Of a stretch of DNA of 21,024 bases, positions 4,685 to 20,931 are shown one piece after another; positions within the stretch are counted from its first letter, which is position 1, and every line of letters starts with the position of its first letter. Source of the stretch: Candidatus Falkowbacteria bacterium (lineage in GTDB: Bacteria; Patescibacteriota; Patescibacteriia; JACRDY01); NCBI GenBank assembly GCA_016218485.1, contig JACRDY010000068.1, forward strand, positions 1 to 21,024, read 5' to 3'. A program made the position numbers and the translations under genes. Under the pieces are notes generated by a model that was given only the letters and a program-made list of their open reading frames with translations, did no database searches and was not told the origin of the DNA.

Positions 4685-4854
4685 CTGTTTGGTGGCATCC
4701 CTGCTCGACTCACCCCGCACAATGCGGAGTGGGTGGGTTTTTATTGAATTACTTAAATTCTAAATTCAAAATCCTAAATTCCAAATACTTAAATCATAAA
4801 TTCTAAACACGCAATACCGAGTTTAAGATTTTGGATTTAGGTAGTATGATTCAT

Positions 4855-4911
4855 CCAGCACCTTCCAGAATATCCCGCAGCAAGCTGACGGGATATTCTG
4901 GAAGGTGCTGG
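4855..4911. repeat. Perfect long hairpin / palindromic element, copy 1 of the CCAGCACCTT family
   Basis: ccagcaccttccagaatatcccg-cagcaagctgac-gggatattctggaaggtgctgg, a 23-bp perfect stem. It is itself flanked by an inverted pair of AT-rich word-repeat arms (4745-4800 / 4912-4965). Confidence 0.7.
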
Positions 4912-4990
4912 ATTTATTTAGGATTTTGAATTTTAGGTTTATAATTTAATTCTTAGTTATGGGTAAGTCTCATTCTATAAATTTTCAGAG

Positions 4991-6463: not shown

Positions 6464-7564
6464 ATGACTCAAAAGAATAAGAAACCCACAGTCATCGTGG
6501 CCATGTCCGGCGGCGTGGATTCGTCTGTCGCGGCCGCTTTACTACAGCGGCAGGGCTATGACGTGCGCGGCGTGCATATCAAGATGTGGTCGGATCCGGA
6601 TATCCCCTGTTTGTTTACTTTTGACCGGATTGACGCCATGAAAGTAGCGATCCAGCTCGGCATTCCTTTCACCACTTGGGATCTGACGCGCGAATACCGC
6701 AGCGCGGTCGTGGACTACATGATCCGCGAGTTTAAGGCCGGTCGGACGCCCAACCCGGACGTGATGTGTAATAGCGAGATCAAGTTCGGGGTGTTTTTGG
6801 ATAAAGTTTTAAAAACGGGCGCGGAGTATTTGGCGACGGGGCATTATGTGAAAAAAGCGCAAAGCGCAAAGCGCAAAGCACAGAGCCAGTCCACGATACA
6901 AAAATTGTATATCGCGGCGGATGGGAATAAGGATCAGAGCTATTTTCTCTGGCGGCTGAATCAGCAGCAGCTGCGGCATAGCCTGTTTCCCCTGGGTGGT
7001 CTGACTAAGCCGCAGGTGCGAGTCCTCGCCAAACAGTTTAAGCTGCCTACCGCTGACAAGCCGGACTCGCAGGGTATCTGCTTCATCGGCGAGATTAACC
7101 TCAAGGATTTCCTGGAACACTACATCCCCCGCCGTCCGGGCACAATCGTGACCACGGACGGCCGCGTACTCGGCCATCATGAGGGTCTCCCCTTCTATAC
7201 CATTGGTCAGCGTGAGGGGCTGGGTCTGGGCGGTGGCATCCCCTACTATGTCGTTGCCAAAAATTTTAAAACCAATCAGCTGATTGTTGGCAGCCGGGGC
7301 GCGGCTGAACTGTTTCTGCCGAGTTTGCGGTTCACCGCCGCCAATTGGCTACTTGGCAGCGAGCCGAAACTGCCTCTGATCTGCCTGGCGCGTATCCGCT
7401 ACCGTCAGCCGCTGGAGCGTTGTCGGGTCAAACGCATCAGCGGTCGCGGCATTCGGGCGATCTATCAAGCGAAATTTACCGAGCCGCAGCGGGCCATTAC
7501 TCCCGGTCAGTCCATTGTGTTGTACAGGAGCGAGGAGATGATCGGGGGCGGGATTATTATTTAG
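6464..7564 (+). CDS. mnmA: tRNA-specific 2-thiouridylase (tRNA (5-methylaminomethyl-2-thiouridylate)-methyltransferase)
   Basis: A 366-aa ORF. PP-loop VAMSGGVDSSV near the N-terminus. Collinear with MnmA throughout (DQSYFL, GICFIGE, ITPGQS..GGGII C-terminus). It contains an ~8-codon in-frame insertion encoded by GCGCAAAGCGCAAAGCGCAAAGCACAGAGC at ~6856-6890. Confidence 0.85.
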   Translation: MTQKNKKPTVIVAMSGGVDSSVAAALLQRQGYDVRGVHIKMWSDPDIPCLFTFDRIDAMKVAIQLGIPFTTWDLTREYRSAVVDYMIREFKAGRTPNPDVMCNSEIKFGVFLDKVLKTGAEYLATGHYVKKAQSAKRKAQSQSTIQKLYIAADGNKDQSYFLWRLNQQQLRHSLFPLGGLTKPQVRVLAKQFKLPTADKPDSQGICFIGEINLKDFLEHYIPRRPGTIVTTDGRVLGHHEGLPFYTIGQREGLGLGGGIPYYVVAKNFKTNQLIVGSRGAAELFLPSLRFTAANWLLGSEPKLPLICLARIRYRQPLERCRVKRISGRGIRAIYQAKFTEPQRAITPGQSIVLYRSEEMIGGGIII

Positions 7565-7700
7565 TCCTTAGTCCATAGTCCCTAGTCCTTAGTCCATAGT
7601 CCTTATTCCATAGTCCTTAGCGTATAGTTTTAGCGTGAAAGCCTCCACTAAGTACTAGGGACTAAGGACTATGGACTATGTATAGGACTATGTACTATTT
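7564..7700. repeat. Palindromic spacer built from TAGTCC/TAGGAC-type 6-9-nt words
   Basis: gtccttagtccatagtccctagtccttagtccatagtcc...actagggactaaggactatggactatgtataggactatg. The two arms are reverse complements of each other. Confidence 0.55.
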
Positions 7701-7817
7701 CCTCTAATTTTGCTATACTAATACTATAGCTATCAGGACATTGACGCTTTTCCAGTCGTGTGCTAACCTATTGGCAAACAAAAGCCCTATGATACGGGTT
7801 TTTTATTTTAAGTCAGT

Positions 7818-7920
7818 CCAGCACCTTTCATCATTTTTATCTAAAATTTGCCATTATATTAGCTAAAATAAGATTAATTATGGTTGATTTATTTTAGATA
7901 AAAATGATGAAAGGTGCTGG
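7818..7920. repeat. Long perfect hairpin, copy 2 of the CCAGCACCTT family, with an AT-rich interior; it ends exactly at the start codon of the next gene
   Basis: ccagcacctttcatcatttttatctaaaat...attttagataaaaatgatgaaaggtgctgg, an ~30-bp perfect stem. Confidence 0.65.
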
Positions 7921-8523
7921 ATGGCTAAAAATATGCAAAAATCACGGATATTGCAAAAACTACGTAAATATTGGAGAAAATTAGGCGCTTTTTTGGTGCA
8001 CATGCATGTGCGTCGGGTTGAATTGGCTGTTTTTGCTGTAATTTTATTTGAATTTTCTTTTCCTCAAGTATCATTAGCTCAAGAATTGCAGGCTCCGGCC
8101 AGCTATCAGACCGAGAGCGTGATGTATGAAACAGTGATTCGGGATGCCGCTCCGGTTATCAGCGACGCGGCTGTATTGGCTGATTTTAATAATAGTCTGC
8201 CAATGGCGGCTGATCGTCAGCCGACCCGTACCATCTGGGTGACGGTAACGGCCTACTCCAGCACTCCGGATCAGACTGACGACAGCCCGTGTATTACGGC
8301 TAACGGGTTTGATGTCTGTGAACACGGGCAGGAGGACGTGATCGCGGCCAATTTTTTGCCCTTTGGTACCACGGTCAAAATGCCGGAGTATTTCGGCGAC
8401 ACAGTCTTTACTGTGCAGGATCGGATGAACGCGCGCTACTACAGCCGCGTTGATGTCTGGATGCAGAGCCGGGAGGCGGCTAAACAATTCGGCGTGCGGA
8501 CGCTTAAGGTTGAGGTTTATTAG
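7921..8523 (+). CDS. Secreted 3D-domain protein (MltA-like fold, cell-wall binding/remodelling; related to YocH/YuiC C-terminal domains)
   Basis: An N-terminal hydrophobic signal/anchor (LAVFAVILFEFSFPQVSLA). The C-terminal region has VTVTAYSSTPDQTDDSPCITANG ... VIAANFLPFGT ... FTVQDRMN...VDVWM, with three spaced Asp residues. The true start may be the internal ATG at 7933. Confidence 0.6.
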   Translation: MAKNMQKSRILQKLRKYWRKLGAFLVHMHVRRVELAVFAVILFEFSFPQVSLAQELQAPASYQTESVMYETVIRDAAPVISDAAVLADFNNSLPMAADRQPTRTIWVTVTAYSSTPDQTDDSPCITANGFDVCEHGQEDVIAANFLPFGTTVKMPEYFGDTVFTVQDRMNARYYSRVDVWMQSREAAKQFGVRTLKVEVY

Positions 8524-8587
8524 CTACAAATAGCGAATAGCACATAGTCAATAGTACATAGCGCTTGAGAAGGGCGTTTTTTTATAT

Positions 8588-8700
8588 GGCTACATTATCA
8601 CATTGCTACATTGCCAAATTGCTAAATTGTCACACTGTTGTGTGGGTTATTTAGCAATTTGGCAATGTAACAGTTTAACAATTTAACAATGTAGCAATTT
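8588..8700. repeat. Large palindrome of ATTGC/ACATTG-type words
   Basis: A perfect 17-bp inverted repeat, ttgccaaattgctaaat / atttagcaatttggcaa, sits inside longer symmetric arms (ctacattatcacattgctacattgcc ... ggcaatgtaacagtttaacaatttaacaatgtagc). Confidence 0.55.
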
Positions 8701-8745
8701 TGCTTTTCCCTTTTACTCCCGCGTGAAATACGGTATAATATTTTT

Positions 8746-9246
8746 ATGCAGCTATTTGTTAAAAAATTCACCAAAAACGGCCTGAAAATAGGTTTTTTTG
8801 TGGTGGCGCTGTGTTTGATGTTGGCGCTGGCATTGCCGGTGCTGGCCGTTACTGGACAGGGTGGTGACACGGGGCAGGGGGATACGAGTGGGCAGGGTAA
8901 TGACACCGGATCGGGTGGTGATACGGGACAAAATGAAGGGGGTAAGGCCAGTATTATATCCCTGGAAGATCCATTGAATGTAAAGACGGATGCAACAGGG
9001 CCATTGTCCAACATAGCTATTGTGCAGGAAATAATTCTCCGTTTGGCTAAATTCCTGATCGCGCCCATCGGCGCTATTGCTTTCCTCTGTTTGGTGATTG
9101 GCGGGTTTTATATGATTTTTTCCGGGGGTAATGAGGAGCGGGTTAAACAGGGCAAAGATATTATTGTCTGGACCGTGGTGGGGATTATCGTGATTTTTAG
9201 CGCCTACGCGGTGATTAATTTTGTGCTGACGGCGGTGAGAGGATAG
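8746..9246 (+). CDS. Secreted small membrane protein with TrbC/VirB2-like conjugative-pilin topology (signal peptide, Gly/Asp/Thr-rich low-complexity segment, two C-terminal TM helices)
   Basis: A 166-aa ORF. Signal peptide FFVVALCLMLALALPVLAVTG, then repeats QGGDTGQGDTSGQGNDTGSGGDTGQNEGG, then two hydrophobic helices separated by GGNEERVKQGKD. TATAAT at 8733-8742. The family assignment rests on topology only. Confidence 0.35.
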   Translation: MQLFVKKFTKNGLKIGFFVVALCLMLALALPVLAVTGQGGDTGQGDTSGQGNDTGSGGDTGQNEGGKASIISLEDPLNVKTDATGPLSNIAIVQEIILRLAKFLIAPIGAIAFLCLVIGGFYMIFSGGNEERVKQGKDIIVWTVVGIIVIFSAYAVINFVLTAVRG

Positions 9247-9478
9247 CACAAAGCTCAGAGCACAAAGCGCAGAGTTCAGAGCGCAAAGCACGTTTCAAAA
9301 GAGCGTCTTTTTTTAATTAGGAATTACTAATTACGAATTACGAATGAGATTACCAAAGAGCGGCTTTTGGCAGGCTAGGAACATGTAACATGTAGCATAT
9401 AGCATGTAACTCCATACAAGCTACACGCTACATGCTACAAGATTTTCTCTCATTTTAAACACTTTTATATACTTTTGA

Positions 9479-9507
9479 TTGACTTTTTATTTAAAATATG
9501 CTATATT
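9479..9507 (+). promoter_or_regulatory. Sigma70-like promoter followed by a ~175-nt structured leader upstream of the 9685 gene
   Basis: TTGACT, 17-nt spacer, TATATT. The leader contains hairpins CACACTGCAGAAGTGTG, CAACCGAA..TTCGGTTG and CCCCGCAAGGGG (GNRA loop). Confidence 0.5.
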
Positions 9508-9684
9508 GACAAATCACACTGCAGAAGTGTGTTTGTATACAGAACCTTGAAAACGGCGTTTATGACCAATAAGCGCTTACAAATATGCAACTCAAGTACA
9601 ACCGAAGAGTCAGTTTTCGGTTGAGTGAAATAGTACAGTCAACAATTCCCCGCAAGGGGTGCAACGGTTTTCGGAGGTGTCATC

Positions 9685-10698
9685 ATGATGCGATTGATTG
9701 AGTCTCTTGATGCGAAAGTCCAAAAGTGGTTCGGCATTCAGCTGATCAAGCTGTGGGACGCGAAAAGCCAAGGCAATCCCCCAGTCATTGTTCGGCTGGA
9801 TGAAAAGCACGAGATCGTTTTCCGATCCGTCTTCGGCAGTGACGACCACACCTTCAGTGGTTACCGGATAGAAGAACCCACCTATTGCTGGTGGGTCCCG
9901 GTCTTCCGTGACGAATACGTCGCCACGATTTTTACCGGGGAGTACTCCGCACCGTTCAATACGCAAGGATTTGAGGCCAACTCCGGCGTGGAAAATATAA
10001 ATGACCTGGAAAAGGAATTCAAGGGCATGATGGGCGCTGCCGCGTGGGAGAAGGCTCGTAAGGAACTGGAAGAGGTGATACAGCGTCGTCTGAAAGGCGG
10101 CGCGCCGAAAGTGACGATATACGTCTCCGGTACGTTGCAGCTCGATGTTGAAGGCATCATCAACGCCAGCGCGAAATACGCCACTCGCTTGTTCAAGAGC
10201 GGCAACGCGGATCAGATCATCAACGGCATGATGGAGCTCGCGCTCGCCCATGTCTTCGGCAGCATGATGCTGGAATCAGCCCTGATCCTCGCGGGTCATC
10301 GGCGGGAAAAGACGATCAAGCAGCTGATGAACTTGATGAATTTCGGCTGCCTGGAAGTGGACGAAGGTGGCGAGCCGATCGAGGCGACGCGGGTCACGGG
10401 TATCAAAGGTCTGCGGTACTACGGTCTCCGTCTGGTGCAGTTCGGTATCAAGCGGATTGTGCCGCCGGAGGAGATTGAGGAAGCGATCCGTCAGGAAGAA
10501 AGCGCCGAACGAGAGCGCGTGGCCGATAAAGCCAAGGCTGATGTCGCGGCAATGATTCACGATCTTCCAGCGGCGTTGGCGTTTACGGTTATGCACCTGA
10601 CCGATGCCCAAGTCAAAGGCCCGGGTCTCGAAATTTCAGTCAGTAAGAATAAGAAGGGAAAGTCCGGCGGTGCAGCAGCGAGTGACTCCACCGATTAA
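9685..10698 (+). CDS. Hypothetical soluble protein, 337 aa, no recognisable domain
   Basis: Long ORF with a GGAGGTG RBS 6 nt upstream and coding-like composition. No motif recognised by eye. Confidence 0.6.
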   Translation: MMRLIESLDAKVQKWFGIQLIKLWDAKSQGNPPVIVRLDEKHEIVFRSVFGSDDHTFSGYRIEEPTYCWWVPVFRDEYVATIFTGEYSAPFNTQGFEANSGVENINDLEKEFKGMMGAAAWEKARKELEEVIQRRLKGGAPKVTIYVSGTLQLDVEGIINASAKYATRLFKSGNADQIINGMMELALAHVFGSMMLESALILAGHRREKTIKQLMNLMNFGCLEVDEGGEPIEATRVTGIKGLRYYGLRLVQFGIKRIVPPEEIEEAIRQEESAERERVADKAKADVAAMIHDLPAALAFTVMHLTDAQVKGPGLEISVSKNKKGKSGGAAASDSTD

Positions 10699-10754
10699 CA
10701 CCAATTCGGGTCGCGGGCTTAAACCCCCGCGACCCGCTCAATCAGGAGTAGTCA

Positions 10755-11753
10755 ATGGAAACAGGAAAAGTCCCATATAGTGAGCCAGGTGAGGTAGATG
10801 CGAAGAAGAAGAAAGATCAATCAGGAGGGAGCATCTACGGCTGGACTATCGCCGGTTTTGCCCTGCTGGCCCTGGTGGTTGTGCTGGTGATCGTGGTAGG
10901 TATCGTGGCGGGGATCGTCGGGGCAATTTCCTGGCTAGCTTTAGGGCTCCTCAGCGTACATATCTCCGCGATTGTACTGCTGGTGGGCTGGCTGTACCGC
11001 CAAAAGGCATTTAGCGCCGCATGGGCAGTGATCTGGGCCGCCATTCTGTTTTTCGGCATCCCAATATGGCTCTTGAAGTATAGTGCCTGGTCGCCTGAGG
11101 CGGCCAAGATGATCAGCGTGTACATTGAGACCGAGGCGGACAAGCAGCGTGAGCTGCCAAACCCGCCGAGTGAGACCTATGAGGAACCAACTTTTCAGGA
11201 CTTCGTCCGTGAGGCCGGAGATCTAGGAGATGGTGAGACCACCACGTTTGAGGAGCCGGCATTTCCGATTGACACGTCAATCCATTGGAAGACCCAGCGA
11301 GGCGTGTGGTGCGTGTACTTTGATCCGAAGACGGATCCGTACCCGTGCCGCGGCAATACCGGCCTGCCCGGTCATGGCGACTTTCGTCTGAAGAACGACG
11401 GGCCGCACTTCACCATCAAGGCCAAGGGGCCGGTGGAGGGGCTGATATTCAGCTACACGGCCAAGACCGGGACTCACCCGGTGCGCAAAGACGACGCGAC
11501 CATCGCGGCCGAGCGCAGGGCCTATGAAGAGAAGGCGGCCGCGATCAAGGACAAGGCCGCGGTTCAAAAAAAGCCGCCGGACGAGTGGTACCAGAATCCA
11601 ATAACATGGATCGTTGTGGCGGTGCTTGCGCTGGTGATCGGCCTGATCATCAGCCGGGTTCGCGCTGGCGGTCGGGTCAAGGCCGCTCAACGTGCGGCAG
11701 ACCAGCAGGCCGTATTGGCACAGTTGGCAAAGGGCGAGGTCACGGTGGAGTGA
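10755..11753 (+). CDS. Hypothetical integral membrane protein (about 4 N-terminal TM helices, a central soluble domain, a C-terminal TM helix), probably co-transcribed with the 9685 gene
   Basis: A 332-aa ORF with an AGGAG RBS. A stable hairpin cgggtcgcgggcttaaacccccgcgacccg with no T-run sits in the 56-nt gap after the upstream gene. Confidence 0.6.
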   Translation: METGKVPYSEPGEVDAKKKKDQSGGSIYGWTIAGFALLALVVVLVIVVGIVAGIVGAISWLALGLLSVHISAIVLLVGWLYRQKAFSAAWAVIWAAILFFGIPIWLLKYSAWSPEAAKMISVYIETEADKQRELPNPPSETYEEPTFQDFVREAGDLGDGETTTFEEPAFPIDTSIHWKTQRGVWCVYFDPKTDPYPCRGNTGLPGHGDFRLKNDGPHFTIKAKGPVEGLIFSYTAKTGTHPVRKDDATIAAERRAYEEKAAAIKDKAAVQKKPPDEWYQNPITWIVVAVLALVIGLIISRVRAGGRVKAAQRAADQQAVLAQLAKGEVTVE

Positions 11754-11833
11754 TGAACTATAGCCCCGGGGGTACGCCCCCGGGCTCACGACTGACCTGG
11801 TTCATATACCAGATCAGTCACACGCAAAGGACG

Positions 11834-11857
11834 GTGGGCCATTTCCCACCGTTTTTT
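11834..11857 (+). terminator. Intrinsic terminator after the 10755 gene
   Basis: ggtgggccatttcccacc + gtttttt. A second hairpin, ccccgggggtacgcccccggg, lies at 11773-11795. Confidence 0.6.
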
Positions 11858-11879
11858 CATTGGCAAAATCTTGGTAACA

Positions 11880-12087: not shown

Positions 12088-12116
12088 TTGACAGGGTAAC
12101 TACCCTTTGCTATAAT
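12088..12116 (+). promoter_or_regulatory. Consensus sigma70 promoter for the 12133 gene
   Basis: TTGACA, 17-nt spacer (containing the palindrome GGGTAACTACCC), TATAAT, then ~16 nt to the ATG. Confidence 0.6.
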
Positions 12117-12132: not shown

Positions 12133-12597
12133 ATGGGCAACACTAATCAACAATTTGAATTATTAGCCATTAAACAAGATTTGGCGGAATTTCGTCAAGA
12201 AAATAACGAACTGTTTTTGGCTATTAAGCAAGATCTAGATCGGATGGCCACCAAGGACGATCTCCAAGGCGTGAAGGACGATCTCCAAGGCGTGAAGGAC
12301 GATCTCCAAGGCGTGAAGGACGATCTCCAAGGCGTGAAGAAGGACTTACATAGGTTCGCCACCAAAGACGACCTATTAGCATTCGCCACCAAAGACGACA
12401 TGGAACATTTTCGGGATGAATTAAAAGAAGAAATTCATCAGACATTTGATGTGCTAATTACCGGGCAGGATAAAATAGTGAAGATACTGATGGATCAGAA
12501 AGCGGAAAACGCGGCCAATCAATCAGCGCACGGACGTTTCCAGACCACGCTGGATACCCACGAACGGAGAATAGGTGTTTTGGAAAATCCTGTTTAG
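12133..12597 (+). CDS. Coiled-coil repeat protein with KDDLQGV heptad repeats
   Basis: A 154-aa ORF with ATKDDLQGV-(KDDLQGV)x3-KKDLHRFATKDDLLAFATKDDMEHF. The heptad periodicity suggests a coiled coil. Confidence 0.6.
   Translation: MGNTNQQFELLAIKQDLAEFRQENNELFLAIKQDLDRMATKDDLQGVKDDLQGVKDDLQGVKDDLQGVKKDLHRFATKDDLLAFATKDDMEHFRDELKEEIHQTFDVLITGQDKIVKILMDQKAENAANQSAHGRFQTTLDTHERRIGVLENPV
12253..12336 (+). repeat. Perfect 4 x 21-nt tandem repeat (aaggacgatctccaaggcgtg) inside the 12133 CDS
   Basis: Four identical consecutive units encoding KDDLQGV. Degenerate units follow (aagaaggacttacat..., accaaagacgacctatta...). Confidence 0.9.
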
Positions 12598-12654: not shown

Positions 12655-12656
12655 AT

Positions 12657-12713
12657 CCAGCACCTTTCAGAATACCCCGTCAGCTTGCCGTGGGGTATGC
12701 TGAAAGGTGCTGG
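12657..12713. repeat. Perfect long hairpin, copy 3 of the CCAGCACCTT family, immediately upstream of polA
   Basis: ccagcacctttcagaataccccg-tcagcttgcc-gtggggtatgctgaaaggtgctgg. It is homologous to copy 1 (4855-4911) with compensatory substitutions on both arms. Confidence 0.7.
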
Positions 12714-12750
12714 ATTTTATTACCCCAAAAATGGTAAAATAGGCCTATCT

Positions 12751-15549
12751 ATGGCTAAGAAAAAGTTAGTAATTATAGATGGCAACGCCCTGATTCACCG
12801 GGCGTTCCATGCATTGCCGCCGACGCTGCGGACCAAGGACGGCACGGTCGTCAACGCCGTATACGGTTTTGCTTTGATTCTTCTCAAAATTTATAAAGAG
12901 CTGAAGCCTGATTATCTCGCCTTGACGTTGGACCGGGCCGCGCCGACATTTCGCCATATTGAGTACACCGAGTACAAGGCGCATCGGATCAAGCAGCCCG
13001 ATGAGCTGTACGCGCAAATTCCACTGGTTAGAGACTTGGCGGGCGCGTTTAATATCCCGACGTACGAGCTGGACGGCTACGAGGCGGATGACCTGATTGG
13101 CACGATTACCGCCAAGACCGACGGCGGTGTCAGGAATATCATTGTTACCGGCGACATGGACACGCTCCAGCTGGTGGATAACGACACTGAAGTCTTCACC
13201 ATGAAGAAAGGGGTCAATGACACGGTCACCTATGATAGTGCCGCCGTGGTCGAGCGCTATGGCCTGCGGCCAGACCAGATGATTGATTACAAAGCGCTGC
13301 GCGGGGACGCTTCAGACAATATCCCGGGCGTGCGGGGAATCGGCGAGAAAACCGCGGTGGAGCTGCTGCAACAGTTTGGGACTTTGGAAAATGTATATAA
13401 AGAAATAAAGAAATTGAGAAATAAAGAAATTACCAGTGTCCGGCCAAGAGTGGCAGAGTTGCTGTTGGAGCATGAGCAGGACGCGCAGATGTCACAGCAT
13501 CTGGCGACGATTGTCCGGGACGCGCCAATTAAGTTTATGATAGAGGACGCGGTAGTGGCCGGGTATGACCAGCAGGCGGTTTTTGACTTATTCCAAAAAC
13601 TGGAATTCAAGTCGCTCTTGAGCAAGATCCCGGGCATGGAAGGCCGGCAGCGTCCCGAGAGTAAAGAGGGGCAGCGGGGGTTGTTTGATAATTCAAAATC
13701 ACAAATTCAAAATAATAAATCCGAAATAAATTCTAAATTCCAAATCCGAAACGGCTACCACTTGCTGGACGATGAGAAGAGTTTTAAAAAGTTTATCGTG
13801 GAACTCAAGAAGCAAAAGTTGATTGTTATTGACACCGAGACCACGGGGTTGGATACGATTACGGATACATTATTGGGGATTGGGTTTTGTTGGAAAGAGG
13901 GGGAAGGATATTATTTAGAAATAAAGAAATTAAGAAATAAAGAAATTGAAAAAGCCATCAGCAGGATTTTATCTGATGAGAAAGTAAAAAAAGTCGGGCA
14001 CAATTTGAAGTTTGATATTGAGGTATTGACGAACGCCGGGTTTACCGTCCGGGGTGTGTATTTTGACACCATGCTCGCCTCCTACCTCCTGGATCCGGGC
14101 TCTCGGGCGCATGACCTGGATACGTTGGCCTTCACCGAGCTTGGCTACCAGATGACGCCGATTGAGCAGCTGATTGGCTTGGGCAAGAGTCAAATTACTT
14201 TAGCCGACGTGGCGGTGGAAGTCGTGGCCGACTACTGCTGCGAGGACGTGGATTATACATTTCGGTTGTATCAAAAGTTAAGTAACGCCATTGAGCAGAG
14301 AAACAGTTTTGGCTTGATGGAAACCATAGAAATGCCGCTCGTTGCCGTGTTAGCCAAAATGGAACTCTTGGGCGTGAAGATTGACATGAAGTTCCTGGGC
14401 CAGCTGGATCGTGAGATTGAGACCACGCGGCAGAAACTAGACAAGAAAATTTTTGCCATGGCAGGCAAAGAATTCAATCTTGATTCACCACTGCAGCTCA
14501 AAGAAATCCTGTTTGAGACGCTGGAAATCCCGACCGAGGGGCTGAAGCGCGGTAAAACCGGTTTCTCCACGGCCGCGGCTGAATTGGACAAAATGCGCGG
14601 GCTGCACCCGATTATTGACTTGATTTCCGAGCACCGGGAGCTGGCCAAACTGCAGTCCACTTACACCCAGGCACTGCCAAAATTGGTTAATAAAAAAACC
14701 GGCCGGGTGCACACCAGCTTTAATCAGACGGTGGCGGCTACTGGTCGGCTGTCTTCGTCAGACCCAAATCTCCAGAACATTCCCATTCGGACGTCATTAG
14801 GCCGCGAGGTGCGCAAGGCCTTCATCGCCGAAAAAGGCTGCCAAATACTGAAAGCCGACTACTCGCAGATTGAGCTGCGGATCGTGGCTAGTCTGGCGCA
14901 AGACAAAGAGATGTTGGCGATTTTCAAGCGCGGGGAAGATATTCATGCCGCTACAGCGGCAGCGATTCACGGCGTGCCCCTGGACAGTGTGACTAAGGAA
15001 ATGCGCTACAGCGCTAAAGAGGTCAACTTCGGCGTGCTCTACGGCATGGGCGCGTACGGCCTGTCGTGGCGCACCGGCATCAGCATGGCTGAGGCCAAAA
15101 ATTTTATTGATAAATATTTTAAGACCTTCTCTGGCGTGAAAAAGTTCGTGGATAGTACGATCAAGTTCGCCCGGCGGGACGGCTACGTGGAGACGCTGTT
15201 TGGCCGCCGCCGCTATCTGCCGGAGATTAATTCAGGCATGGCGCAAGTCAAAAACGCGGCCGAGCGCATGGCCATCAACGCGCCAATTCAGGGCACGGCC
15301 GCGGACTTGATTAAGCTGGCCATGATCGCGCTGGACACAAAGTTAGCGGCTGAATTTACAACAGAAGAAGTAAAGATGATCCTGCAGGTGCATGATGAAT
15401 TGGTGTTTGAGGTAAAGAGCGGTTTAGTAAAAACCGTCGCGCCACTGGTGAAGGATGTGATGGAGAACGTGTACCAGCTGCGCGTGCCGATTGTGGTGGA
15501 CGTGGAGGCGGGGGAGAGCTGGGGGGAGACGGGGGAGGTTAGTTTGTAA
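12751..15549 (+). CDS. polA: DNA polymerase I (5'-3' exonuclease, 3'-5' exonuclease and polymerase domains)
   Basis: Start chosen at MAKKKLVIIDGNALIHRAFHALPP (ATG 12751). The ORF-track start at 12685 lies inside the upstream hairpin. 5'-nuclease motifs are present (GDASDNIPGV.GIGEKTA), as are the 3'-5' exo region (VIDTETTGLD ... YLLDP) and the Pol A family motifs (RRxxKxxNFGxxYG; VHDELVFE). Confidence 0.9.
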   Translation: MAKKKLVIIDGNALIHRAFHALPPTLRTKDGTVVNAVYGFALILLKIYKELKPDYLALTLDRAAPTFRHIEYTEYKAHRIKQPDELYAQIPLVRDLAGAFNIPTYELDGYEADDLIGTITAKTDGGVRNIIVTGDMDTLQLVDNDTEVFTMKKGVNDTVTYDSAAVVERYGLRPDQMIDYKALRGDASDNIPGVRGIGEKTAVELLQQFGTLENVYKEIKKLRNKEITSVRPRVAELLLEHEQDAQMSQHLATIVRDAPIKFMIEDAVVAGYDQQAVFDLFQKLEFKSLLSKIPGMEGRQRPESKEGQRGLFDNSKSQIQNNKSEINSKFQIRNGYHLLDDEKSFKKFIVELKKQKLIVIDTETTGLDTITDTLLGIGFCWKEGEGYYLEIKKLRNKEIEKAISRILSDEKVKKVGHNLKFDIEVLTNAGFTVRGVYFDTMLASYLLDPGSRAHDLDTLAFTELGYQMTPIEQLIGLGKSQITLADVAVEVVADYCCEDVDYTFRLYQKLSNAIEQRNSFGLMETIEMPLVAVLAKMELLGVKIDMKFLGQLDREIETTRQKLDKKIFAMAGKEFNLDSPLQLKEILFETLEIPTEGLKRGKTGFSTAAAELDKMRGLHPIIDLISEHRELAKLQSTYTQALPKLVNKKTGRVHTSFNQTVAATGRLSSSDPNLQNIPIRTSLGREVRKAFIAEKGCQILKADYSQIELRIVASLAQDKEMLAIFKRGEDIHAATAAAIHGVPLDSVTKEMRYSAKEVNFGVLYGMGAYGLSWRTGISMAEAKNFIDKYFKTFSGVKKFVDSTIKFARRDGYVETLFGRRRYLPEINSGMAQVKNAAERMAINAPIQGTAADLIKLAMIALDTKLAAEFTTEEVKMILQVHDELVFEVKSGLVKTVAPLVKDVMENVYQLRVPIVVDVEAGESWGETGEVSL

Positions 15550-15655
15550 GTTCATAAGTTCATTAGTTGGTAAGTTTATTAGTTTATTAGTTGGAAAGTT
15601 TAAAAGTTAACCCCGTCGGATCGCTCTGGCGGGGTCTTGCTGTTCGTGCGGGGGT

Positions 15656-15778: not shown

Positions 15779-16192
15779 TTACTCGCAGACGCGGTCGCGT
15801 GCCTTGATGGCCTCGGCCAGTTTGGCTTCCGTGAGGAGACGCTGCTTGTCCAGGCGCGTGGCCTCGCTGTAGAGCCGCTGCCACTCCAGCTCGATGGCGG
15901 GGTAGTTGGCGTTGTATCGCGACGAGGTGATGTCCTTGGCGACTTGGTAGTCGGCCAATTTGAGGTCCGCCGCTTTGGCGGAATCCTTGGCTTTGTCAGT
16001 GAGGTCGTCCAGGTCGCCCTGGAGTTTGTCGGCCTGCTTGTCGGCCGCGGTGCAGGCGGCCTTGGTGTTCGCGACCGACTCTTTTCCGATCATGTTGTCC
16101 ATGGCCACAGCCTGCTGGTTGGTCGCGGCGCAGCCGTTGACGACGATTCCCAGGCAGCACATCAGAACGAACAGAACGAGCGCGCGTTTCAT
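15779..16192 (-). CDS. Small lipoprotein, paralog A (signal peptide, lipobox VNGC, coiled-coil body, C-terminal Cys)
   Basis: MKRALVLFVLMCCLGIVVNGCAATNQQA.... GGAGGAGG RBS. A conserved 5'UTR hairpin CGTCCAATCCCGGACG sits directly upstream of the RBS. Confidence 0.7.
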   Translation of the reverse strand: MKRALVLFVLMCCLGIVVNGCAATNQQAVAMDNMIGKESVANTKAACTAADKQADKLQGDLDDLTDKAKDSAKAADLKLADYQVAKDITSSRYNANYPAIELEWQRLYSEATRLDKQRLLTEAKLAEAIKARDRVCE

Positions 16193-16379: not shown

Positions 16380-16688
16380 TCATTTCTGACTCCGTTCGCA
16401 GTAGGTATTGCGCATGGCTTGCGCGATTTCCAGGTTGAGGTGGAGCCGGTCTGACTGTTGTGCGAGCTCGACCGCAGCCGGACCAGACTTGGTCGAGCGT
16501 AGGCGCTGCTCAGTCACCGCGATCTCGTGGCTGATGTTAGCGATCGACTGCTCGGCCTCGGCGCACTTTGCCGGGTCGGCTACGTCCTGCATCCCCAGCA
16601 GATGCGGGATTGTCAGGGCGTTGGGGTTGGTGGCCGCGCAGGCCACCGTGAGGCATAGTACGGTGACGGTCAGGATGGCCTTAATCAC
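16380..16688 (-). CDS. Small lipoprotein, paralog B, with a GTG start
   Basis: The ORF-track 179-aa ORF is an over-extension. AAAGGAGGACGACC-GTG gives M-IKAILTVTVLCLTVACAATNPNA... (lipobox VAC), about 102 aa. Its start overlaps the stop of the upstream paralog by 8 nt. Body and C-terminal Cys are homologous to paralogs A and C. Confidence 0.6.
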   Translation of the reverse strand: MIKAILTVTVLCLTVACAATNPNALTIPHLLGMQDVADPAKCAEAEQSIANISHEIAVTEQRLRSTKSGPAAVELAQQSDRLHLNLEIAQAMRNTYCERSQK

Positions 16689-17109
16689 GGTCGTCCTCCT
16701 TTGACGGGCAGTAGTATGTGCGCCGTCGGGTGGCTTCAGTGAGAGCTTTGCTCGTGTTTTGTTGATCGACCGCCAGTGAGTTGATGGCGGTCTCGAGCCG
16801 AGTCCACTGGGCTGAGAGAGCGGCGTTTTCCTCCGTATCATCCTCGCCCCGCAGGGTTTTCTGGAGGCTGACTCGGAAGTAGCCCTTGATCTCGGCTTGC
16901 GTCTTTTTGATCGCCGCATCGAGCTTCTCGAGCGTGCTTGTCAGCGCGCTGACGTCCTGGCGCGCTTTGGCGCACTCGGCCTCCCTGTCGGCGACCCACT
17001 CATGGCCGAGGAGCATATCCAGCTCGGCGGCGTTCTGGTTCTTGGCCGCGCAGCCACTGGCGAGGCACGCCAGCACCAGCAGTGCCAGAACGAATGATGT
17101 CTGTTTCAT
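16681..17109 (-). CDS. Small lipoprotein, paralog C
   Basis: MKQTSFVLALLVLACLASGCAAKNQNA.... GGAGGA RBS. The same conserved upstream hairpin as paralog A (CGTCCAATCCCGGACG-A-GGAGGA). Confidence 0.7.
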   Translation of the reverse strand: MKQTSFVLALLVLACLASGCAAKNQNAAELDMLLGHEWVADREAECAKARQDVSALTSTLEKLDAAIKKTQAEIKGYFRVSLQKTLRGEDDTEENAALSAQWTRLETAINSLAVDQQNTSKALTEATRRRTYYCPSKEDDRD

Positions 17110-17436: not shown

Positions 17437-18030
17437 TCACTCTGGCCGGCCGTCCTTGCCACAGGACCGGGCTCCCGTTGGGGAATTTCGGTGCTGCATT
17501 TTCTTCATTCTGCTCTTCCTCCTGGTGATGGGCGTAGTGTACCGGATTATTTTTTTTCGCCAAGACTGTTGGTAAAAGGTAAGCCCGTCCCCGAACGCGG
17601 GAGGGCGGGCCAAATGAGCTTGCTGGCAGAAGCGGCGGCGCCAGCTTTTGATCTGTTCTATTTGAACACTCACATCGCGATACTTCCCTCGGGTCTGGCG
17701 CTGGATCGCCGACATCGACAGCAGGACTCTGTAGTCCCGTTCGGTCATTGTCTCCGGCAAGAATGGCAGGACGATGAATGCTCCACCAGACTGTTCCAGC
17801 TCGTCCAGTACGTTCTGGCCGTAGTAGTGCCGGATGGCCGCTCGGAAGACCATGTCTTGGGTGACAAGATCGCTCAAGAGCTGCTCCTGTAGGACCTCGC
17901 GGGCAATCTGTGCCAGTTCGAGGTCGTCGCAGGTTTGGCTCCCGTGTTCTATCTCAATCAGGGCGGCGAGTTGGCCATTGGCGGTGCAGCCGATGGAGAC
18001 TGCGATCATTAAAAAAAGAGCGCGTTTCAT
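17437..18030 (-). CDS. Lipoprotein, unrelated to the A/B/C paralogs; its 3' end is uncertain
   Basis: MKRALFLMIAVSIGCTANGQ (lipobox IGC) with an AAGGAGAAGG RBS. The last ~60 codons are basic and low-complexity, and they overlap an alternative 110-aa ORF (17231-17563) in another frame. Possible frameshift or misassembly. Confidence 0.5.
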   Translation of the reverse strand: MKRALFLMIAVSIGCTANGQLAALIEIEHGSQTCDDLELAQIAREVLQEQLLSDLVTQDMVFRAAIRHYYGQNVLDELEQSGGAFIVLPFLPETMTERDYRVLLSMSAIQRQTRGKYRDVSVQIEQIKSWRRRFCQQAHLARPPAFGDGLTFYQQSWRKKIIRYTTPITRRKSRMKKMQHRNSPTGARSCGKDGRPE

Positions 18031-18096
18031 TGCCTTCTCCTTGAGCGTGAAAGGGTTATGTTCTTTGTACCATACTAGGGGAAAAGGTCAAGATTA

Positions 18097-18167
18097 GACA
18101 CAGATTACACAGATAAACACAGATGGCACAGATCCGTGTGATCTGTGATTATCTGTGTAATCTGTGT
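18097..18167. repeat. Near-perfect ~70-bp palindrome of CACAGAT-type words, abutting the stop codon of the 18168 gene
   Basis: agacacagattacacagataaacacagatggcacagatc|cgtgtgatctgtgattatctgtgtaatctgtgtct. A second copy, 68/71 identical, is at 20861-20931. Confidence 0.8.
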
Positions 18168-19796
18168 CTAATAGATTTCCTTCTGGTAACACTCCTCACA
18201 GTACACCCGTTCCGGCCGCTCCGGCGCGTACGTCGTCTCAAATTCATTGGTGCAGCCCGCGTTCATGCAGGCGCGGTGGTACAATGTGCGCGGGTTGCGT
18301 TGCTGGAGTCGCGCCAAATGGCGACAGTCAAAGCACTGGCGGGCGATTGGCAGGCCGTGGCTGCGGTAGAATTTCAATTCCTGAGGAATAATTTTGTAGT
18401 CTTTTTTGCAAGTAGTGCAGGCCAGGATTTCGTTGAGAATGGCGTCTGTCACTTGGGTAATGTCAGCTGGTATGTCCGTCAGTGTTTCTCGGCCAAAGGT
18501 GCCCGGCAGCTCATTCTGCCAGAACCAGCCTTTACTCTGGACCTCATCTTTGGTCAGGGGAAAGTACTCCCGCGCGATGGTTTCGTTATAGCAGAACGGG
18601 GACAGGCGGATCGGGAAAAATTCGCCGTACTGGTCAGCTCGCTTCATCTCCTCAATAATCTTTTCTTTCAGTTGCTTATATTCGGTTTCGGAATATTTTT
18701 TGTTCAAAATTTGGTAGGAGCCGTGTTTGAGTCCGGTGCAGCCGAATAAATTTTGACTATAGAAACACTGCCACGAGTAGCTCGTGAATGAGCAGTCCCA
18801 GCAGGCCACCGTCGCAATTTGATATTTACTGTTGACGATGCTGATACAGTTGTAGCTCATTTCGGCTTTTGGCGAATAATTAATATCACTGACCGCTGAC
18901 GCGCCTCGGGGCAGGTTCCAGACGTAGAAGCAGTCTTCCAACTCTTGTGATTCAAAGCAGTGCGCGGCGTTGCGACAGTTATAGAGGTAGTCGCCGGTTG
19001 AGTTCTCGCAGTGGCGGATGCGCGCATATGGCCGCGGCACGGTCAGGCTGAATTGGTAGAATGTTTGATAAAATTTTTCCGGATTAGCTTTGGCTTCCGC
19101 TAACACTTTCGCGCATTCTTCCTTAGTCGCCGGTTTATTGAAAATATAATTTTCTTTGTGGCGCAGGCCGACGCAGCCAATGCAATTCTGGCAGCTGATG
19201 CAATCATAGCAAAAGGCCAGTTCAGATGAATTTTCGCAGTCATTACAATAAATGCCGGAGAAAAGATTTTGGCAGTGGACGCACTGGTAGCAGTTTTGCA
19301 GATCAAAGCCTTGCGCGCAGTCCATGGAGTCAAACGAGTTATTAACAAAATAGGAATAGTAAATATTCTCCCCGGTAACGCCGGAGATGCACATATAGGA
19401 ATCTTTGTAGTAGACCGAGTGCGGGCAGTAGTCGCTGTTTTCGCCGTGCGAGATGATCAGCGCCAGGTGCGGAGTTTTCAGTAGCAGCTCTTTGAATTGT
19501 TCCAGAAATGGTTTAGCTGGATCATAGTCCAGCGCTGGCGCTTGCCACCTGTCGCTCCACCAGCACTCCGGGCAGTACTGGAGGTAGGGTTTGTCTTTGG
19601 CGTAAAAAGAGACAATAGCTTTTTTGCAGAGATCACATTGGCGAGTATAGAGCATTCGTTCATTACGCCAGGCACAGCGAGATCGCTGCCGGCAGTCCGG
19701 GCAGCTTTTTGGCTCGGGCAGATTCAGTTTCACGAAGAAGTCTTTCTCGGCGCTCGTCAGGTCAAATTGTGCGTTGCAGTGTTGGCAGGTGGTCAT
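18168..19796 (-). CDS. Cysteine-rich multi-zinc-ribbon protein, 542 aa with roughly 60 Cys, and homologous N- and C-terminal double-CxxC modules
   Basis: N-terminus C5xxC8...FxxLNLPEPKSC32PDC35RQRSRCAWRNERMLYTRQC54DLC57...YC75PEC78WW. C-terminus CTTCKKDYKIIPQELKFYRSHGLPIARQCFDCRHLARLQQRNPRTLYHRACMNAGC...YCEECY. Both share the skeleton CxxC-F-LP-CxxCR-R-RN-R-LY-R-C-C-YC-EC. The centre has ~20-aa repeats of the form YNC-x3-C-x2-S-x2-L-x2-C. Confidence 0.7.
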   Translation of the reverse strand: MTTCQHCNAQFDLTSAEKDFFVKLNLPEPKSCPDCRQRSRCAWRNERMLYTRQCDLCKKAIVSFYAKDKPYLQYCPECWWSDRWQAPALDYDPAKPFLEQFKELLLKTPHLALIISHGENSDYCPHSVYYKDSYMCISGVTGENIYYSYFVNNSFDSMDCAQGFDLQNCYQCVHCQNLFSGIYCNDCENSSELAFCYDCISCQNCIGCVGLRHKENYIFNKPATKEECAKVLAEAKANPEKFYQTFYQFSLTVPRPYARIRHCENSTGDYLYNCRNAAHCFESQELEDCFYVWNLPRGASAVSDINYSPKAEMSYNCISIVNSKYQIATVACWDCSFTSYSWQCFYSQNLFGCTGLKHGSYQILNKKYSETEYKQLKEKIIEEMKRADQYGEFFPIRLSPFCYNETIAREYFPLTKDEVQSKGWFWQNELPGTFGRETLTDIPADITQVTDAILNEILACTTCKKDYKIIPQELKFYRSHGLPIARQCFDCRHLARLQQRNPRTLYHRACMNAGCTNEFETTYAPERPERVYCEECYQKEIY

Positions 19797-20111: not shown

Positions 20112-20861
20112 ATGTCCACCAAAAATATTCTAGAAGACTTGGGTCTAACCAAAAGCAAGGCTGATGTGTACTTGGCGGCGTTAGCCGTTGGCAGCGGCTC
20201 GGCCCAGGAGATCGCCAATCGGGCGGGTTTACCGCGGACTACTACTCATGAAATTCTGCAGACGCTCGTCGGCATGAGTCTGATTGGTTTCGTGACTAAA
20301 GGCCGGACGCGGATCTACAGCGCCGAGCCGCCGGAGAAGCTCAAAATTTTACTCAAAGAAAAAGAGGCCAGGCTCGAAAAGGCTTTGCCAGAATTGTCGG
20401 CTCTCTTCAACACCAGCGGCATTCGGCCGCGGGTGCGGTTTTACGAAGGTGAGGATGGTATTAAAACAGTGTTTGAAGACACGCTGACCGTCAGCAACAA
20501 GCTGTTGCGCAGTATTCTTTCCATGAAAGACCTGTATGAAATGCCGGGCAAGGATTACGTCAACGCCTACACGCGCCGGCGAATTGCGGCTGGAATAAAA
20601 CTGCGCGTGGTGCGTTCAGAGGGTAAAGAAGTGGAGAAAGTTTGGCCGGCGAGCACTCGAGACAGCCGCGATCTGCATTACGCGCCGGATGATATGTTTT
20701 TCCCGATGACGGTGTATATTTACGACAACAAGCTCGGGCTCATCAGCAGCAAAAAAGAAAACTTCGGCATGATTATTGAGTCGCCGGATCTGTATCAGAC
20801 CATGAAGAATATGTTTGAGGTGATGTGGCAGGTGACGCGGGTGATGAAACCGGTGGATTAG
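20112..20861 (+). CDS. TrmB-family transcriptional regulator (N-terminal winged HTH plus C-terminal effector domain)
   Basis: A 249-aa ORF with the N-terminus LGLTKSKADVYLAALAVGSGSAQEIANRAGLPRTTTHEILQTLVGMSLI, which matches the TrmB HTH pattern (LGLTxxEAxVYLxLLxxGxxTAxEIAxxSGVPRTKVYxVLxxL). Confidence 0.65.
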   Translation: MSTKNILEDLGLTKSKADVYLAALAVGSGSAQEIANRAGLPRTTTHEILQTLVGMSLIGFVTKGRTRIYSAEPPEKLKILLKEKEARLEKALPELSALFNTSGIRPRVRFYEGEDGIKTVFEDTLTVSNKLLRSILSMKDLYEMPGKDYVNAYTRRRIAAGIKLRVVRSEGKEVEKVWPASTRDSRDLHYAPDDMFFPMTVYIYDNKLGLISSKKENFGMIIESPDLYQTMKNMFEVMWQVTRVMKPVD

Positions 20862-20931
20862 ACACAGATTACACAGATAATCACAGATCCGTGTGATCTG
20901 TGATTATCTGTGTAATCTGTATCTAATAGAT
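20861..20931. repeat. Second copy of the CACAGAT-word palindrome
   Basis: agacacagattacacagataatcacagatc|cgtgtgatctgtgattatctgtgtaatctgtatct. It overlaps the TrmB stop codon on one side and abuts the stop of the partial paralog on the other. Confidence 0.8.

Follow-up and report, generated by a model that had tools for sequence, protein, structure and literature searches.

What does it mean when a gene for a putative wall-cleaving enzyme stands directly in front of a pilin gene, on DNA where no secretion machinery is encoded? The question is raised by contig JACRDY010000068.1 of a Candidatus Falkowbacteria metagenome-assembled genome (ABY1-type Patescibacteria), whose entire 21,024 nucleotides (nt) constitute the window analyzed here and which carries four open reading frames (ORFs) of interest on the + strand, P1 (200 aa), P2 (166 aa), P3 (337 aa), and P4 (332 aa). 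The initial annotation, made from the letters of this DNA, placed the four ORFs correctly and regarded them, by analogy with the virB1-virB2 gene order, as a possible minimal surface-appendage or secretion module. The parts prove to be of known kinds, including (i) a membrane-anchored barrel protein related to lytic transglycosylases, (ii) a VirB2-like pilin of type IV secretion systems (T4SSs), and (iii) a divergent SPFH protein encoded with a membrane partner, and the recurrent enzyme-pilin pairing in relatives may point to a wall-opening helper. The reading developed below, to which we give an even chance, is that the pilin would feed a T4SS encoded elsewhere in the genome, with P1 acting as a VirB1 analogue and P3-P4 forming a separate scaffold operon.

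P1, a tethered barrel of the 3D/YuiC type

P1 (7921-8523, + strand) comprises a basic N-terminal helix, one membrane-spanning helix (residues ~33-53), a disordered linker (~54-100), and a barrel (101-200). Because the basic helix, the single transmembrane helix, and the linker stand before it, the barrel should project outward from the cell's own membrane, to which they tether it. The AlphaFold2 (AF2) model, built from 25 sequences, displays block-mean predicted local distance difference test (pLDDT) values of 87-96 across residues 101-200, and its Foldseek comparison with the PDB retrieves (i) the double-psi beta-barrel protein Pa4485 (4avr; E = 7.8e-5), (ii) YuiC (4wlk and 4wjt; E = 2-5e-4, probability 1.0), and (iii) lower in the list, MltA (2gae; E = 0.047). 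At the sequence level, the Pfam 3D model PF06725 gave no match at E ≤ 10 on P1 and 24 family members, and direct phmmer and profile searches against the PDB sequences found nothing; the homology is therefore established through the fold and through a phage intermediate, gp073 of Bacillus phage SP-15, which scores 35.4 bits on PF06725, matches YuiC at 1e-18, and is aligned by hhalign with the P1 family alignment at 95.2% probability (E = 2.4e-8, 97 columns). In addition, the C-termini of the NCBIfam EntA/B/D models match P1 at E ~1e-4, tblastn discloses 89 phage records at 33-39% identity, and the PHROG matches are phage peptidoglycan enzymes. By both fold and profile comparison, the C-terminal 100 residues form a 3D/YuiC-like double-psi beta-barrel, as the initial annotation had supposed in calling the protein a 3D-domain one.

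The family comprises more than 2551 homologues, labeled '3D domain-containing' by NCBI and JGI, is present in 434 GTDB species representatives, and preserves 45-60% identity across orders, usually with one copy per fetched locus and with two tandem copies in L027 and L039. The NCBI model of P1 itself falls four codons short of the ORF (196 vs 200 aa), the difference in start codon lying within 7921-7935. The family alignment discloses as invariant T110, Y112, D167, and D178, together with the family-specific DQTD, two cysteines (C124 and C133), and QDRMN. The first four residues align with T91/Y93, D151, and the catalytic D162 of YuiC, the latter equivalent to D308 of MltA (PMC4499186), in a mapping obtained from two chained alignments via gp073 rather than from direct structural superposition, and the spacing of 11 residues between D167 and D178 is the same as that between D151 and D162 of YuiC. 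Taken together, P1 is firmly identified as a tethered homologue of the MltA/YuiC-type lytic transglycosylases, and its sequence predicts the corresponding enzymatic activity.

An outward-facing barrel could also be turned against another cell. P1 would then be a host-directed surface lytic transglycosylase that damages the host wall at contact for nutrients, with the pilin mediating contact, and both the ~45-residue disordered linker between anchor and barrel and the fact that the closest relatives outside the phylum are phage wall-degrading proteins speak for such a role. We nevertheless judge it very unlikely: the transmembrane helix sits in the cell's own membrane with no predicted release site, the linker is short when compared with two envelopes, and the family is highly conserved across orders, unlike typical host-interaction effectors and unlike the fast-evolving neighbors of P1.

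P2, a VirB2-like pilin of the PF18895 family

P2 (8746-9246, + strand) scores 38.0 bits on the T4SS_pilin model PF18895, against a cut-off of 26.6 (E = 1.8e-9), with residues 94-160 covering positions 6-71 of the 71 in the profile, and PF18895 is also precomputed for the P2 protein and its homologues. On the TrbC/VirB2 model PF04956 the match is related and sub-threshold (22.3 bits vs a cut-off of 27.9, E = 1.5e-4), and NF045849, an NCBIfam pilin-like model of integrative and conjugative elements, is matched at E = 2e-5. The pilin topology noticed by the initial annotation, a signal-peptide-like N-terminus and two C-terminal helices, is recovered, with hydropathy segments at residues 8-40, 95-129, and 135-166; helix 1 (~104-126) is connected to helix 2 (~139-161) by the basic loop SGGNEERVKQGKD, which the family conserves as GNEE(K/R)VK. 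A signal peptide is predicted at residues ~1-34, with probable cleavage after A34 (…PVLA↓VT), and a G/D/T/Q-rich low-complexity segment occupies residues 36-66. The orthologues, 38-50% identical, keep the helix-loop-helix and display a wholly different N-terminal mature part, a hypervariability that would fit a surface-exposed end. P2 is firmly assigned as a PF18895 (VirB2-like) T4SS pilin.

The phylum provides a context for such a gene. Of 3035 Patescibacteria genomes, 2417 (~80%) carry VirB4; VirB2-like pilins were detected with the PF18895 and PF04956 models in 1948 assemblies, near virB4 in only 1135 of these, the pilin arrays comprise 2-11 genes, and the T4SS core is normally encoded elsewhere on the chromosome (PMC12102498). 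Few systems have been demonstrated to be indispensable to cultivated Patescibacteria as epibionts, and the T4SS, whose function there is not known, is one of them; a VirB1-like wall hydrolase is mostly not found in the phylum (PMC12102498, PMC11665869); VirB1 homologues are rare, and other glycosidases may fill the role (PMC12102498). The phrase '3D domain' was not found in the Patescibacteria literature searched.

Recurrence of P1 beside pilin genes

The adjacency of the two genes was followed through relatives. A P1-profile scan of GTDB species representatives returned 80 loci, a local hidden Markov model of the pilin identified 240 pilin genes in 90 sequences (the window and L001-L089), and the pairing was counted over 68 evaluable, non-identical P1 loci. 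A PF18895 gene lies within 2.5 kb of P1 in 37 of the 68, either (i) as a pilin that follows P1 (6 loci) or (ii) as a pilin array that precedes it (31 loci), the array comprising 6-9 paralogues and ending ~0.1-2 kb upstream on the same strand (e.g., L041, L081, and L024); one further locus, L091, carries (iii) a divergent pilin/P1 pair. The pilin-hydrolase adjacency pointed out in the initial annotation accordingly recurs in three arrangements. A neighbor-joining tree of the P1 domain places the loci with P1 followed by a pilin as a monophyletic group inside the pilin-less half, and those with an array followed by P1 fill most of the other half. The pairing arose or was kept in at least two or three configurations and is more than one inherited accident. 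Because the P1 and pilin genes are recurrent neighbors, P1 would most likely be a wall-opening helper.

In 12 of the 37 pilin-bearing loci a conserved protein of ~530 aa is encoded, which has 8 or more hydrophobic segments and matches no Pfam family (L024:3000-4619, L020:3655-5274, L088:4727-6316, and L041:3778-5361, all on the - strand). In the loci inspected it is divergently transcribed and adjoins the pilin array or lies within ~1.3 kb of it; its build resembles that of membrane glycosyltransferases, an analogy that raises the idea of a possible role in pilin modification.

The main rival explanation is a housekeeping one, in which P1 is a peptidoglycan-remodeling lytic transglycosylase for growth or division, its adjacency to the pilin is inherited and uncoupled from function, P2 is a dispersed T4SS pilin, and P3-P4 is unrelated to either. 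The broad distribution over the 434 species representatives, usually as a single copy per locus, suits this account, as do the 31 of the 68 loci with no pilin within 10 kb of P1, where P1 lies between Nramp/RidA (upstream) and polA, or before infB-rbfA-nrnA, a setting among housekeeping genes that fits a general wall-remodeling role. Uhrbacteria-type loci, with P1 directly upstream of polA, suggest two old neighbors that were later separated by insertion of the pilin and of the P3-P4 pair; in addition, the promoter and terminator signals of P1 and P2 are separate, and the arrangements are largely clade-specific. On the other hand, all three arrangements keep P1 and the pilins within ~2 kb, a proximity to a pilin locus that, by a rough estimate, a random gene in a ~1 Mb genome would show ~1% of the time, and the adjacency persists though the surrounding genes differ between clades. 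On this balance the housekeeping account is unlikely, if a serious contender. Were P1 nonetheless a housekeeping enzyme, the locus would be an ordinary case of the dispersed pilin genes of the phylum.

Transcription units

The P1, P2, and P3-P4 genes look like three separate transcription units. A terminator-like hairpin, AGCGCTTGAGAAGGGCGTT followed by a T-run, lies 3' of P1 (8560-8585, + strand), and a promoter-like site TTTACT-16-TATAAT, a consensus match only, ends 6 nt before the P2 start (8712-8739, + strand); because both stand between the two genes, P1 and P2 do not form one operon. The resemblance to virB1-virB2 proposed by the initial annotation stands at the level of protein identity (a 3D-type homologue and a PF18895 pilin), and the pairing recurs in relatives. 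Promoter-like consensus sites in this region, where intergenic DNA is AT-rich, show no enrichment over chance (8 vs 6.4 ± 2.1 in shuffles).

The promoter of the P3-P4 operon, TTGACT-17-TATATT with a TG extension (9479-9507, + strand), is credible not because of this consensus scan, but because L007 and L009 preserve the -35 and the extended -10 element at orthologous positions 5' of their SPFH genes, the proteins encoded behind it being only ~23% identical. Downstream, a structured 5' leader of ~171-177 nt (9508-9684, + strand) with three local hairpins folds with a minimum free energy of -49.5 kcal/mol (z = -2.66), only 1 of 200 shuffles being as good, and its conservation in the relatives is patchy. 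Both elements had been described in the initial annotation and are borne out, the promoter at the DNA level in two relatives and the hairpin-rich leader as a better folder than shuffled sequence that belongs to no Rfam family. A riboswitch or other known RNA was considered for the leader and rejected, the Rfam search giving only sub-threshold microRNA-like matches due to long hairpins elsewhere. The 57-nt gap between P3 and P4 holds a GC-rich 11-bp intercistronic hairpin (10707-10736) followed by an AGGAG ribosome-binding site. A terminator-like hairpin 3' of P4, ACGGTGGG-CCATTT-CCCACCGT followed by T6 (11831-11858, + strand), was read directly from the sequence, being absent from the list of the scan tool.

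The P3-P4 operon

The initial annotation had described both P3 and P4 as proteins with no recognizable domains. For P3 (9685-10698, + strand; NCBI protein HY933_04660) this is incorrect, since residues 143-285 match positions 58-172 of the 176 in the SPFH/Band 7 profile PF01145 with 45.9 bits against a cut-off of 23.6 (E = 8.4e-12). Weak NCBIfam HflC/HflK matches are also found, and a profile built from three orthologues gives marginal PDB matches to PH stomatin and HflC (E 0.3-0.8). The gene at the same position in L009 matches P3 at E = 1e-21, and the same-position genes of L007 and L009 carry weak Band_7 matches. A word-indexed search among 5.8 billion proteins for close homologues returned only P3 itself. 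Hydropathy discloses no N-terminal membrane anchor in P3, whose first 180 residues lack hydrophobic segments and which has only a marginal one, at 185-204; the L007 and L009 orthologues have no anchor either.

P4 (10755-11753, + strand) comprises three N-terminal hydrophobic segments (~24-111), a soluble domain of ~165 aa, a fourth hydrophobic segment (~278-306), and a basic C-terminal tail. Here the earlier description holds, the protein being polytopic and without a family assignment in Pfam, NCBIfam, PADLOC, or PHROGs; an exhaustive HMMER search among 1.84 billion representatives retrieved only P4 itself. Its positional counterparts in L007 and L009 preserve the same architecture with barely any common sequence. 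A defense-system or phage reading of the pair was rejected, with no PADLOC matches and only weak PHROG ones (E > 0.01), to the C-terminal hydrophobic segment of P4.

P3 is firmly identified as an SPFH protein without a membrane anchor, the gene of a membrane partner following its own. As a family, SPFH proteins serve as general scaffolds of membranes, to our knowledge with no established role in T4SSs. Recruitment of a cytosolic SPFH protein by membrane partners of the same operon has a precedent (PMC8581546; bioRxiv 10.64898/2026.02.06.704340), and by that analogy P3 and P4 would interact physically. In L092, the polytopic protein that follows the pilin (L092:2266-3528) begins with a CxxC…CxxC zinc-ribbon-like motif that recalls the zinc-ribbon protein YdjG, which in B. 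subtilis recruits the SPFH protein YdjI; at the sequence level, no similarity between the two was found.

The clade of the window, examined in the window, L002, L007, L008, L009, L011, and L092, always preserves the order P1, one pilin, a soluble protein, a polytopic membrane protein, and polA. The soluble/membrane pair is of the SPFH type only in the window, L007, and L009, and is not detectably related elsewhere in the clade: comparison of P3 and P4 with the gene pairs of sister lineages gave hhalign probabilities of ≤10% and nothing with BLAST, a result that does not disprove diverged homology. Because polA and a zinc-finger gene are collinear as well, this order is weak evidence by itself.

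These observations decide how far the idea of a self-contained module can be taken, i.e., that P1-P4 are a minimal appendage or secretion system in which the SPFH and polytopic proteins serve as an assembly platform replacing VirB4/VirB6. The persistence of the four-gene block in all examined members of the clade, despite a divergence that leaves its last two proteins unrecognizable as relatives, could be taken to favor it, and the low complexity and hypervariability at the N-terminus of the mature pilin suggest that this end is exposed at the surface. Such a module would, however, lack an ATPase or other energy source among its four proteins, would be spread over three transcription units with no ATPase or channel gene seen in the loci and neighbors scanned, and would depend on general scaffolds and on synteny that polA and the zinc-finger gene share equally; moreover, the soluble/membrane pair has no detectable homology between sub-lineages, its slot holding pairs with no detectable relation in sister lineages, and is absent from the other two arrangements. 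The four-gene secretion module of the initial annotation is thus not upheld, and we regard it as highly improbable. A further proposal is that P1 is the wall-opening T4SS component in ABY1 lineages, a VirB1 analogue on an MltA/3D barrel, and the block of P1, pilin, soluble, and polytopic proteins an accessory pilus-base cassette, whose hypervariable last two members would organize the membrane pilin pool or adapt to hosts; this, too, we consider improbable.

Proposed explanation and points against it

In the explanation with an even chance, that of a VirB1 analogue beside a pilin serving a distant T4SS, P1 would be an outward-facing, membrane-anchored lytic transglycosylase that cleaves the cell's own peptidoglycan locally. 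P2, after Sec export and signal-peptide cleavage, would sit in the membrane as a two-helix hairpin, to be drawn on by a Patescibacteria-type T4SS, a system derived from the monoderm conjugation class MPF-FATA, encoded elsewhere in the genome. By opening the wall for this T4SS, P1 would be a functional VirB1 analogue on a different fold. P4, polytopic, would recruit the soluble SPFH scaffold P3 to the membrane, as YdjG/H recruit YdjI; the slot that the P3-P4 operon occupies, with the pilin gene on one side and polA on the other, is fast-evolving. Protein families, folds, transcription signals, and synteny are what the analysis shows, whereas enzymatic activity, pilus formation, the coupling of P1 to a T4SS, and the P3-P4 interaction are inferred.

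Several points weigh against this explanation. The first concerns the secretion machinery: the eight loci annotated with Pfam (L002-L004, L007-L009, L091, and L092) encode no VirB4, VirD4, VirB6, or TrbL, and no VirB4, VirD4, or VirB6 was found among ~40 neighbors scanned in the other loci (including 30 of the 37 cluster representatives of ORFs ≥400 aa). The scanned neighbors with a Pfam match are all housekeeping (PPDK, Lgt, MFS, ComM, SBP, PBP1, RNase J, AspRS, DnaA, GlmS, and others), and a few have no Pfam match. The 21-kb contig holds no secretion ATPase or channel gene, so that the lack of a VirB4-like gene noted by the initial annotation extends to the whole contig. The pilin does belong to the family which that annotation expected, and the secretion genes it hoped to see nearby are missing from the loci examined. 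P2 would be tied to a T4SS through family membership and the literature, and polymerization of PF18895 proteins into pili in monoderm Patescibacteria is a presumption.

The second set of points concerns P1. Besides the failure of PF06725 on the family, the first of the three name-giving aspartates (D129 in YuiC) is replaced, the corresponding positions being A143 and the invariant N144. The P1-pilin arrangements map to few clades and hence to few independent events; the pilin-less loci among housekeeping genes, as well as the separate promoter and terminator signals of P1 and P2, count on the same side. With respect to the scaffold part, NfeD is the usual operon partner of SPFH proteins, and neither NfeD nor another known SPFH-partner domain was found in P4 with Pfam and NCBIfam; the single-sequence AF2 model of P3 was unusable (pLDDT 36) and was discarded.

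Repeats and other features of the contig

Upstream of P1 stands a perfect 31-nt inverted repeat with a 43-nt loop (7817-7921), whose right arm, …GATGAAAGGTGCTGGA, covers the Shine-Dalgarno-like stretch of P1 and ends at the first base of its start codon, a position from which the repeat may control P1 translation. The repeat is one member of a palindrome family that is specific to the genome and has the termini ATCCAGCACCTT…AAGGTGCTGGAT (4853-4913, 7817-7921, and 12655-12715), another copy lying ~40 nt before the likely polA start. The palindrome 11-mer AAGGTGCTGGA occurs in 6 copies against 0.28 expected; of the fetched loci, only L001, from the same organism, and L020 and L024, with a single copy each, contain it as well. 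The left arm, CACCTTTC, is similar to the anti-Shine-Dalgarno end of 16S rRNA. In addition, nearly every intergenic region contains short-period (7, 8, 14, and 16 nt) quasi-repeats with inverted copies, and long imperfect hairpins flank the genes (7561-7697, 8583-8700, 9245-9345, 9379-9440, 4754-4807, 15539-15608, 18093-18172, and 20857-20927), the distant sites 18093-18172 and 20857-20927 having the unit ATTAGACACAGATTACACAGAT in common. These quasi-repeats could be insulators, terminators, or small mobile repeats.

The remainder of the contig comprises the 3' two thirds of a 16S rRNA gene (ending at 1021), an HD-domain gene, purD, five tRNA genes, mnmA, tRNA-Cys, a coiled-coil gene, polA, three small lipoprotein-like genes, a Cys-rich 542-aa gene, and a TrmB-like gene. 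Located 3' of the 16S rRNA gene, an ORF resembling homing endonucleases of the LAGLIDADG type (1400-2005) and an Rfam match to group II intron D1-D4 (1370-1483, 48 bits) may constitute an intron-associated element (1370-2005) close to where the next rRNA gene begins. The coiled-coil gene (12133-12597), preceded by a perfect TTGACA-17-TATAAT site (12088-12116) that would drive it, contains a perfect 21-nt tandem repeat of 4.1 copies (12253-12339) coding for DDLQGVK units; L011 displays, in the same position before polA, a K/E-rich heptad-repeat protein of 151 aa, similar as judged by eye. The mechanical ORF of polA starts at TTG 12685, the likely start being an ATG near 12752 (MAKKKLVIIDG…). 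The three small genes with lipoprotein-like signals (…GCA, …GCT) lie on the - strand (15779-16192, 16681-17109, and 17437-18030) where the G+C content is raised (0.57-0.60). Coiled-coil-like bodies are present in the first two, and none of the three received a family assignment in the Pfam scan of the window proteins.

Comparison with known systems

The best analogy for the P3-P4 pair is YdjI/SamI of B. subtilis with its membrane partners YdjG-YdjH (PMC8581546). Like P3, YdjI is an anchorless SPFH protein, and P3 appears to be co-transcribed with a polytopic membrane protein; unlike in the YdjI operon, no PspA gene stands beside P3-P4, no similarity of P4 to YdjG, YdjH, or NfeD could be detected, and the strong divergence of P3 limits its match to about two thirds of the SPFH profile. 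The pair adds one more bacterial SPFH protein that lacks an anchor and is encoded with a membrane partner.

The VirB2-like pilins of Patescibacteria T4SSs (PMC12102498) offer the closest comparison for P2, which likewise exceeds the PF18895 cut-off, displays a predicted signal peptide, two helices, and a basic loop, and is chromosomal with no adjoining relaxase; the relatives of P2 carry tandem arrays of divergent pilin paralogues, as described for the phylum. P2 differs in being a single gene away from virB4, paired with a 3D-type hydrolase and below the PF04956 cut-off.

As for P1, the 3D lytic transglycosylases YuiC/Sps and MltA (PDB 4WLK and 2GAE; PMC4499186) have in common with it the fold and, by the chained alignments, the TxY motif and the substrate-binding and catalytic aspartates, YuiC representing the same minimal single-domain form. 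Unlike YuiC and MltA, P1 misses the Pfam 3D model and carries A143/N144 in place of the first aspartate, and it is anchored by an N-terminal transmembrane helix whereas the YuiC and MltA systems are secreted or lipid-anchored.

The functional comparison is with the VirB1-type hydrolases of T4SSs (VirB1, pIP501 TraG, and PrgK), where, as for P1, the gene of a wall-cleaving enzyme adjoins a pilin gene in the virB1-virB2 order. VirB1-type enzymes comprise SLT/GH23 lysozyme-like or CHAP/NlpC-P60 domains and are encoded in a T4SS cluster, whereas P1 is an MltA/3D barrel with no cluster, has a transcription unit of its own, and has many relatives without a pilin neighbor. Local opening of the wall for an envelope-spanning machine is expected of the VirB1-type hydrolases and would likewise be expected of P1; a highly conserved, readily recognized 3D-type enzyme recurrently encoded beside VirB2-like pilins offers a concrete candidate for the wall hydrolase that the Patescibacteria T4SS has mostly seemed to lack.

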